Positions 23,655-24,248 of a DNA stretch of 64,000 bases are shown piece after piece. This DNA comes from Escherichia phage WPEC2: sequence record PV691511.1; one strand, written 5' to 3'. Under the pieces are notes generated by a model. It saw nothing but the letters and a program-made list of their open reading frames with translations, was not told the origin of the DNA and ran no database searches. Within the stretch, counting starts at the first letter, position 1, and every line of letters begins with the position of its first letter. The position numbers and the translations under genes are program-made.

Positions 23655-24248
23655 TTACCAAGGAATATCATCTTCTTCCGATCTGGTATCTACTTGAGGT
23701 GGACGCGGAACCTTCACTTCTTTAACAAAACGTAGATATGGGAAACGTGTGGCAATTTTAATAACATGTTTGGCATCTTCTCTAACGTCTTTGTGCAAGA
23801 AGCAGATCCCTGTTTCCAAGGTTGTTTCAAAATCTTTAGAATAATAACAATCCTTCCCATCAAATGCAGCCTGGCAGATGGACAGATCGAACTCATTTAG
23901 AAAGGTTGTCATTACGCTTGGTTCCATAATCATAAGGTTGCAAAGCTGACCATCACGTTCAAACTCAAAAACGTGTTTAAGACCAGTAACACCTTCATAA
24001 TTGTCAGAAGCCTCTTTGTTTCCTAGTTTACGAATATTGGTTCCCATTAAAGCAGATGCAATTAATCCTTGTATTTGTTCTTCAGTCCGATGTGCAGGAA
24101 GGGATGTATAGAAATCCAGATCACGTCCAGCAATATCAAGAATACGCCAATCACGAACAGCACCGCCAGCCAAGACAGAATTAGGATCAGCGATCTTTAA
24201 TACGGTAAGAATTTCTTTGGCAATATTGATTTGTTTTGATTTAGTCAT
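23655..24248 (-). CDS. minimal Pol-beta-type nucleotidyltransferase (CCA-adding-enzyme-like head) with acidic-aromatic C-terminal tip
   Basis: 197 aa; LAGGAVRDWRILDIAGRDLDFYT matches GGAVRD...D.D head motif of CCA/poly(A) nucleotidyltransferases; ends ...SEEDDIPW. Confidence 0.55.
   Translation of the reverse strand: MTKSKQINIAKEILTVLKIADPNSVLAGGAVRDWRILDIAGRDLDFYTSLPAHRTEEQIQGLIASALMGTNIRKLGNKEASDNYEGVTGLKHVFEFERDGQLCNLMIMEPSVMTTFLNEFDLSICQAAFDGKDCYYSKDFETTLETGICFLHKDVREDAKHVIKIATRFPYLRFVKEVKVPRPPQVDTRSEEDDIPW

Follow-up and report, generated by a model that had tools for sequence, protein, structure and literature searches.

The 197-residue product of a minus-strand gene of Escherichia phage WPEC2 is probably an active, stand-alone nucleotidyltransferase (NTase), built from the catalytic head of the class II (CCA-adding/poly(A) polymerase-type) enzymes and one neck-like helix. 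It has the predicted fold of such a head and its invariant GG and DxD motifs, it has lost the RRD motif and the tRNA-binding body and tail, and it belongs to a large phage-restricted family recurrently placed in a T7-type replication module. The best explanation for the data as a whole, which we put forward tentatively as plausible but somewhat short of probable, is that the protein is a replisome-tethered, template-independent nucleotidyltransferase that docks through a C-terminal tip resembling that of SSB.

The gene was studied in a window comprising the whole stretch of DNA that was analyzed, 64,000 nucleotides of record PV691511.1, which derives from a Phapecoctavirus. The 4-kb region around the NTase is 100% identical to Escherichia phages WPEC1, WPEC4 and WPEC6 and 96-98% identical to many Phapecoctavirus genomes (phAPEC8/ESCO5-like myoviruses, ∼150 kb), in whose GenBank records the gene is labeled 'nucleotidyltransferase' or 'putative tRNA nucleotidyl transferase / poly(A) polymerase'. 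Two PHROGs profiles, both labeled nucleotidyltransferase, are matched as well, phrog_10174 with E 6.5e-63 over residues 1-128 and phrog_1614 with E 3.5e-11 over residues 4-191, and the same profiles (phrog_10174 / phrog_1614) are matched by phi92 gp158, ICP1 ORF223 and fHe-Kpn01 Gp22. Because GenBank and PHROGs already name the gene an NTase, the motif observation made in an earlier note on this DNA is a rediscovery of existing annotation and in itself not new. What is new, as far as searchable literature shows, is the family-wide linkage to PolA and the SSB-Ct-like tail; a literature search for a characterized phage head-only NTase, for SSB-Ct mimicry by phage enzymes and for phage CCA repair returned only the report of Gp22 toxicity.

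The open reading frame is a genuine gene. The stop codon of the preceding 72-aa ORF, at 24241-24243, overlaps the start of the NTase by 8 nt, so that the latter is embedded in a tightly packed run of minus-strand genes; a promoter scan of the sequence gave a count not above the shuffled expectation. The class II head motif from which the earlier note had set out reads GGAVRD-x9-DLD here, that is, G28-G29-A-V-R-D33, nine residues, and then D43-L-D45, in agreement with the GGxVRD-x(8-10)-DxD signature of class II enzymes. The pattern GGxxRD-x(8-10)-DxD occurs once in the six frames of the 64-kb window and not at all in 200 shuffled windows, excluding a chance motif. Coordinates are collected in Table 1.

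Table 1. The NTase gene, elements of its product and neighboring features, with positions in the window
Feature	Position	Strand	Details
NTase CDS	23655..24248	-	ATG start, 197 aa + stop; read from sequence
NTase protein parts			structured domain, residues 1-176; disordered tail, 177-197
Shine-Dalgarno GGAG	24256..24259	-	7 nt 5' of the NTase ATG; read from sequence
Motif A, G28-G29-A-V-R32-D33-W34 ... D43-L-D45	24114..24167	-	hG[GS] turn + two metal-binding carboxylates (predicted)
Degenerate motif B, F120-D121-L-S123-I124-C125	23874..23891	-	low-confidence hhalign extension
Neck-like helix, E157-D158-A-K-H161-V-I-K164-I-A-T-R-F169-P170	23739..23780	-	motif D position; model + hhalign
Disordered linker (residues 177-190) + tip E191-E-D-D-I-P-W197	23658..23720	-	tip 23658-23678
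130-aa conserved ORF, between NTase and SSB-like gene	23217..23609	-	phrog_16560, E 1.5e-76
SSB-like protein	22313..23200	-	295 aa, ending EEPPMDFDDDIPF; annotated SSB in ESCO5
Family A (T7-type) DNA polymerase	24877..28209	-	Pfam DNA_pol_A, phrog_17; three small ORFs between it and NTase
Intein-like insertion in DNA polymerase	25729-26463	-	245 aa; mapped against PsgM04F polymerase
Bidirectional terminator-like hairpin	22258..22281	.	10-bp stem, 5 GC pairs, T-runs on both strands

Used as a single sequence, the protein reaches the Pfam PolyA_pol head (PF01743) with E 0.074 and 13.8 bits, under the 23-bit gathering cut-off, and a search of PDB sequences with it returned chance matches only (an abscisic-acid receptor, E 0.3). 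Across the family 17 of 124 members match PolyA_pol at E ≤ 0.01, the best with E 3.9e-5, and a family profile compared with PDB sequences finds CCA-adding enzymes at E 0.002, the alignment extending over residues ∼9-49 only. An AlphaFold model computed on the 124-sequence alignment (pLDDT 92.3, pTM 0.85) is structured through residue 176, beyond which the tail is disordered, and contains the alpha-beta-alpha-beta-alpha-beta core with hG[GS] and [DE]h[DE]h motifs that characterizes the Pol-beta superfamily, the fold on which the proposal of the earlier note depended. Taken together, the confident model and the profile match to CCA-adding enzymes establish that the structural assignment to a class II-type head is correct. 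An earlier AF2 model, generated from 11 close homologues, was poor (pLDDT 62.7), and Foldseek with that model gave weak, generic Pol-beta matches only.

In order to compare the protein with class II enzymes motif by motif we have used the definitions of PMC2910056 and bioRxiv 10.1101/2023.12.02.569716. Motif A is the only region that aligns with CCA-adding enzymes by sequence. Among 124 family sequences G28, G29, D43 and D45 are invariant and A27, A30, R32, D33 and W34 are conserved at 91% or more. When the family profile was aligned by hhalign with the single sequences of E. coli Cca and Gp22 only motif A was matched, over 27 columns in the case of Gp22, and a forced long alignment to a Cca profile, with a probability of 50%, was used as a guide only. 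Correspondences beyond motif A are therefore provisional, as they derive from a low-probability hhalign extension and from the order of secondary structure elements.

Motif B, DxxRRD, recognizes the ribose 2'-OH in class II enzymes (PMC2910056). The stretch aligned with it here, L-N-E-F-D-L-S-I-C, departs from this pattern: it is placed against DLTIN of E. coli Cca with N-E-F in the position of RRD, in a low-confidence hhalign alignment, and the family consensus is F-x-x-S-I-C (F120 85%, S123 77%, I124 69%, C125 76%) with no conserved Arg. Sister NTases of the Autographiviridae have hFDCxLN at the same position and the head-domain NTases of Pandoravirus have DFD in place of RRD (bioRxiv 10.1101/2023.12.02.569716), so that viral head-only NTases seem, as a rule, to carry motif B in an 'FD' form. 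In the model residues 90-108, in the region of the flexible loop of class II enzymes, form a beta-hairpin. Where motif D (EDxxRxxRxxRF) would lie the model has a helix, residues 160-168, in a segment (Table 1) that lines up with EDPLRVLRVARF in E. coli Cca. Conservation is high for K164 (97%), H/Y161 (95%), F/Y169 (99%) and P170 (76%), and below 50% for E157 and D158. The EDxxR template for CTP/ATP reads EDAKH, with Arg replaced by His in what is again a low-confidence alignment. Motif E and the body and tail domains are absent, the family length being 175-230 aa; homologues of E. coli Cca carry PF12627 and PF01966.

Judged from its sequence, then, the protein looks like an active catalytic core, one without several of the features that define CCA-adding enzymes and poly(A) polymerases. 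The earlier note was right that the protein is half the size of those enzymes, and the structure prediction that it called for gives a head and one neck-like helix with no body. Its assignment to a class II-type head is supported by model and profile, while a CCA/poly(A) function finds no match in motif B, motif D or the body and tail. A truncated or pseudogenized CCA enzyme is excluded by the uniform family length of ∼200 aa and by conservation over the full length, and membership of the CD-NTase, MNT, MenT and Pol X groups was rejected on the corresponding membership tests.

Could the protein be catalytically dead, a structural accessory with a retained ancestral fold, such as a subunit that binds the polymerase? 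In favor of this, the candidate for a third carboxylate, E95, is acidic in only 69% of family members, which counts as well against the replisome-tethered reading, and the coupling to PolA described below could signify a structural partnership. However, class II enzymes reportedly need only the two carboxylates of motif A (Hou et al. 2005, as cited in bioRxiv 10.1101/2023.12.02.569716). Moreover, GG and DxD are invariant, and conservation of R32, D33, W34, Y84 and K164 reaches at least 91% among sequences that share only 22-36% identity with the window protein, arguing for a maintained active site. We consider a dead accessory very improbable.

An exhaustive profile search recovered 1045 cluster representatives at E ≤ 1e-3, of which 334 pass the stricter threshold of E ≤ 1e-10. 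Nearly all members fall within the length range given above and match profile positions 1-177; no Pfam domain was detected in the N-terminal extensions of ten longer ones. A scan of one genome from each of 185,579 prokaryotic species produced 5 loci, all on MAG contigs that are probably phage DNA, with one of the proteins 98% identical to that of the window. IMG/VR contains at least 85 loci and tblastn with the window protein finds relatives in 192 phage records; with the sister Gp22 relatives are found in 265 records, mostly 40-46-kb Autographiviridae. We conclude that the family is essentially phage-restricted. A Foldseek search of BFVD returned many phage proteins of 165-215 aa (from Ralstonia, Caulobacter, Dickeya, Pseudomonas, Pectobacterium, Aeromonas and Vibrio phages, and including ICP1 ORF223), along with giant-virus proteins that carry the head as a fusion with BTB, ankyrin or F-box/LRR modules.

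The family is recurrently linked to family A DNA polymerase and in some phages translationally coupled to it. On the minus strand of the window the order is primase/helicase ... methyltransferase, family A Pol, ORFs of 63, 55 and 72 aa, NTase, 130-aa ORF and SSB-like gene, the terminator-like hairpin standing after the last gene of the run. The order Pol ... NTase - 130 aa - SSB-like is found also in phi92 and in Pseudomonas phage PsgM04F, and a homologue of the 130-aa ORF occupies the +1 position in 6 loci; phi92 gp157 is such a homologue. For a broader survey ORFs were called in 56 IMG/VR and MAG loci, the five neighbors to each side were clustered and the loci were grouped into 40 lineages at 60% NTase identity. 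Of these lineages 15 have T7-type PolA as a neighbor and 14 have primase/helicase; 9 have the two together and 20 at least one of them, and the strand is in every case that of the NTase. The NTase lies at or adjoining the polymerase in all four Autographiviridae genera sampled: Pol is followed by NTase with an ATGA overlap in fHe-Kpn01, NTase by Pol with an ATGA overlap in Q19, stop and start codons abut in the series ligase, NTase, Pol of Ahp1, and a single ORF separates Pol from NTase in VP93. The remaining 20 lineages, half of the total, have neither Pol nor primase nearby and a mixed set of neighbors (HNH endonucleases, DenV, exonuclease, dCMP deaminase), a point against a role in the replisome.

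Adjacency alone is no proof of such a role, since phage replication modules, for example the class II genes of T7, are interspersed with anti-host genes, and the NTase of Q19 is surrounded by gp4.5, gp5.5 and gp5.7, anti-host genes all. The location, in the early/middle region, could thus be that of a small-molecule enzyme of anti-defense or host takeover, one that makes or consumes a nucleotide signal or nucleotidylylates a metabolite. We regard this as quite unlikely. A PADLOC scan for defense-type NTases gave no match, and CD-NTase, OAS and SAS folds score well under class II RNA NTases; the combination that marks cGAS/DncV-like enzymes (the C-terminal helical lobe of CD-NTases, a PADLOC/CBASS match and a nearby effector gene) is not found for the window protein. 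As a member of the CD-NTase/CBASS class, at least, the nucleotide-signal synthase offered as an option by the earlier note can be set aside. Further, we know of no enzyme with a class II head and a small-molecule acceptor, and neither the SSB-like tip nor the translational coupling with PolA would have an obvious role.

Gene context bears also on the possibility that the protein acts at tRNA 3' ends, either by CCA-like repair of acceptor ends damaged by host toxins or by MenT-like extension or blocking that would reprogram host translation. Its characterized relatives act on RNA, and two lineages have suggestive surroundings: in one (L040) a 113-aa ORF and the genes for an Rnl1-type RNA ligase and a polynucleotide kinase come after the NTase, and in the other (L080) a Thg1-like tRNA-His guanylyltransferase is encoded two genes upstream. 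RNA-repair neighbors are, however, limited to these 2 of 40 lineages, tRNA genes to the fetched flanks of 4 of 41 loci, and the 64-kb window contains no tRNA gene; we know of none in Autographiviridae of 40-46 kb with the sister gene. The RRD of motif B, an EDxxR conserved at the family level, the flexible loop and the tRNA-binding body and tail are all missing, there is no sequence relation to MenT/AbiEii, and the host already possesses Cca. While it deserves to be kept in mind, a tRNA-end function is in our estimation unlikely.

Toward the C-terminus the pLDDT of the model falls from 89 for residues 171-180 to 70 for 181-190 and 57 for 191-197, and the protein ends ...PRPPQVDTRSEEDDIPW. Its tip, EEDDIPW, resembles the DDDIPF of E. 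coli SSB, which ends ...DFDDDIPF, and the features of an SSB-Ct type motif are all present: an acidic stretch, I-P-aromatic at the free C-terminus and a disordered linker before it. Homologues that are 58-97% identical keep the tip DDIPW, with one DSFPW variant, over a linker that varies in both length and sequence. The same tip is found in a homologue of only 36% identity (P0016, ...NFPDDIPW) and in P0124 (...SSNDIPW), and other divergent members end in ...ESIPY, ...EKPIPF, ...NNIPF, ...SDDDF, ...WDEEF or ...EDFEF. IP[FWY] stands at the extreme C-terminus of 5 of 148 family representatives and of none of 522 non-SSB neighbor ORFs (Fisher p=5e-4); for acidic-aromatic tails the corresponding counts are 10 of 148 and 9 of 522 (p=0.003). 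Among the window ORFs of at least 40 aa exactly two have IP[FW] after an acidic stretch as their end, namely the NTase and the SSB-like protein encoded two genes downstream. The last 11 residues of the latter, PPMDFDDDIPF, are identical to those of E. coli SSB, and it matches PHROG SSB families at the tail only. The DDDIPF hexapeptide of SSB-Ct is an established docking element for SSB partner proteins (e.g. PMC5872125). Since the tail is found in only ∼7% of family representatives and is missing from phi92 gp158, which ends ...NNEEFKI instead, it is not a general targeting mechanism.

A tip of this kind might instead deliver a protein-modifying activity, with AMPylation or NMPylation of SSB clients or of a replisome protein serving to inactivate or regulate them. 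NTase-fold enzymes that modify proteins exist, the MNT antitoxins and GlnE among them. Targeting does appear to proceed via protein-protein modules, an SSB-like tip here and BTB, ankyrin or F-box/LRR on the giant-virus relatives (bioRxiv 10.1101/2023.12.02.569716). All that is shared with MNT, GlnE and other protein-modifying NTases, however, is the common fold, and most family members lack the tail; we consider protein nucleotidylylation distinctly unlikely.

In the replisome-tethered reading that we prefer the NTase would transfer nucleotides without a template to a nucleic-acid 3'-OH, the acceptor being a 3' end, of DNA or of primer/RNA, generated at the phage replication fork or close to it. 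With RRD absent the enzyme may not discriminate between ribo- and deoxyribonucleotides, leaving the use of dNTPs possible. Having no substrate-binding domain of its own it would be brought to its target by protein-protein contacts; in the window protein the tip EEDDIPW would imitate that of SSB and dock into an SSB-tip-binding pocket, either of a host SSB client or of the phage polymerase. There is precedent in T7, where gp2.5 and gp4 dock on the DNA polymerase through acidic, aromatic-ended tails. The fusion of giant-virus heads to protein-interaction modules fits this picture of an adaptor-delivered catalytic head. The relative Gp22 is toxic on expression in E. coli, the sole experimental phenotype in the group (PMC7291057), and this fits as well if untimely or excess activity is harmful to the cell, although the toxicity is compatible with several of the models. 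Against the replisome-tethered reading, the choice of substrate and nucleotide is pure inference, and the protein is acidic (pI 5.3; family median 6.3), which is unusual for a binder of nucleic-acid ends. In addition, characterized class II enzymes all act on RNA and not on DNA, and to our knowledge every one is a ∼400-aa RNA-tailing enzyme that needs its body and tail domains for substrate.

A bolder form of the proposal, to our minds rather unlikely, is that head-only class II NTases are an unrecognized accessory of T7-type replisomes. Tethered to the fork, in this phage by the SSB-tip mimic, they would extend the 3' ends of DNA or primers with untemplated (deoxy)ribonucleotides, perhaps as a cap or shield that keeps SSB-guided host exonucleases or end-sensing defense systems away from replication intermediates and genome ends. 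Were this so, phage DNA replication would have a step not known before, performed by a clade so far known only from RNA tailing, and T7-type replisomes, among the best-studied of replication machines, would gain an enzymatic activity if the protein acts at the fork. A function at tRNA ends would instead make the protein a minimal tRNA-end-modifying core of viral origin, and, with the toxicity of Gp22, the family would under either reading be a candidate source of antibacterial mechanisms. What has been maintained under selection is a stripped catalytic head, in more than 1000 phage lineages and repeatedly coupled to a viral family A polymerase. The family is large and experimentally tractable, and the SSB-tip mimic, next to an SSB-like protein with the exact host tip, offers a concrete handle in the form of a 7-residue peptide for finding partners.

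Compared with class II tRNA nucleotidyltransferases and poly(A) polymerase I (PF01743; 1miv, 3h37, 3aql, 4wby), the window protein has half the length and neither body, tail nor motif E; DxxRRD is replaced by xxFD, the flexible loop by a predicted beta-hairpin and EDxxR by conserved H/Y161 and K164. Similar in build are fHe-Kpn01 Gp22 and the other Autographiviridae NTases (phrog_1614), which share the size (170-205 aa), the head-only architecture and the FD-type motif B, and whose gene abuts family A Pol; in pairwise comparison the Gp22 group resembles the profile of the window family in motif A only and, unlike the window protein, none of the four translated sister proteins (fHe-Kpn01, VP93, Ahp1, Q19) has an SSB-like tail. 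PDB 2LA3, the 191-aa 'CCA-adding enzyme head domain' NP_344798.1 of S. pneumoniae, differs from the phage family in being bacterial and has no detectable sequence similarity to the family profile (it is not recovered at E ≤ 1). MenT and AbiEii (DUF1814) are, like the window protein, small NTase cores without large RNA-binding domains. They are toxic through template-independent addition to tRNA 3' ends; their hallmarks, a match to PF08843 or to the PADLOC AbiE models together with an adjacent antitoxin, are not those of the window gene. ASFV Pol X (174 aa) and TdT exemplify very small enzymes of the Pol-beta fold that extend DNA 3' ends with (d)NMPs, and while the window protein does not show the family X combination of palm with thumb/fingers and matches to Pfam Pol X models, ASFV Pol X is a precedent for a viral mini-NTase acting on DNA. 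Finally, the giant-virus BTB/ankyrin/F-box NTase heads (Pandoravirus cluster 7) are matched by Foldseek at E 1e-6 to 1e-8. They come from eukaryotic viruses and are multidomain proteins of 300-1000 aa, yet they likewise keep motif A, have DFD for RRD, lack EDxxR and join the head to a protein-protein interaction module.

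The final 11 residues of the 295-residue SSB-like protein encoded in the window (PPMDFDDDIPF), which include the docking tip DDDIPF, are identical to the C-terminus of E. coli SSB. Pfam gives no SSB/OB domain match in the body of the protein, and the match to the PHROG SSB families is confined to the tail. We therefore regard it as a possible ssDNA-binding protein of a non-canonical type, one that would hijack the SSB interactome of the host. Its gene is separated from the convergent gene for an 890-residue tail protein, comprising an RCC1-like β-propeller region, a Big_2 domain and a C-terminal cysteine-containing repeat region, by a perfect bidirectional hairpin terminator (see the table).

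The SSB-like ORFs of phages phi92 (gp156) and PsgM04F continue for 15 residues beyond the tip (...DFDDDIPFAPIGLQYGRNFLHCF), which is therefore no longer C-terminal in these proteins. In PsgM04F the end of the ORF is overlapped by a gene annotated 'endonuclease', and this overlap suggests that the terminus has been altered by insertion of a mobile endonuclease.

Features of the window and of the compared loci, with coordinates in each
Feature	Location	Strand	Remarks
Tail protein, 890 aa	window 19584-22256	plus	converges on replication operon
Hairpin terminator, bidirectional	window 22258-22281	both	10-bp stem, T-runs on each strand
'SSB', 295 aa	window 22313-23200	minus	ends in PPMDFDDDIPF
130-aa ORF, phrog_16560	window 23217-23609	minus	between NTase and SSB-like gene
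63-aa ORF	window 24637-24828	minus	between polymerase and NTase
Insertion in DNA polymerase gene (24877-28209)	window 25729-26463	minus	comparison with PsgM04F polymerase
phi92 SSB-like ORF (gp156)	L002 6026-6973
PsgM04F SSB-like ORF	L093 5564-6517
IMG/VR contig	L040 6001-8467		NTase, 113-aa ORF, Rnl1-type RNA ligase, polynucleotide kinase
IMG/VR contig	L080 130-2167		Thg1-like tRNA-His guanylyltransferase, 228-aa ORF, NTase
Vibrio phage ICP1 ORF223	L003 3956-4375		139 aa

The phrog_16560 ORF, for which no Pfam match was obtained, immediately follows the nucleotidyltransferase (NTase) and precedes the SSB-like gene in all six Stephanstirmvirinae-like loci examined, and its product may work together with one or the other of these two proteins. 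The 63-residue product on the other side of the NTase carries two cysteine pairs (C-W-S-C ... C-I-H-C) with weak zinc-ribbon/rubredoxin-like matches in Pfam, and is also kept in L011, another locus with an NTase homologue. Compared with its counterpart in Pseudomonas phage PsgM04F (84-92% identity), the DNA polymerase encoded further upstream carries a clean insertion of 245 residues, from Cys583 to Asn827 and followed by Cys828, whose boundaries look like those of an intein (Cys1 / Asn-Cys+1); Pfam detected no Hint/intein domain in the polymerase at E≤1e-3.

Other relatives of the NTase lie in different surroundings. ORF223 of ICP1, which defines the nucleotidyltransferase family phrog_10174 (E 2e-85), is a version that ends after the β-sheet core and lacks the neck-like helix; its neighbors are small ORFs, with a DNA ligase gene ∼1.3 kb upstream and the polymerase not adjacent. 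Two distant members, on contigs L040 and L080, are found in RNA-repair contexts.
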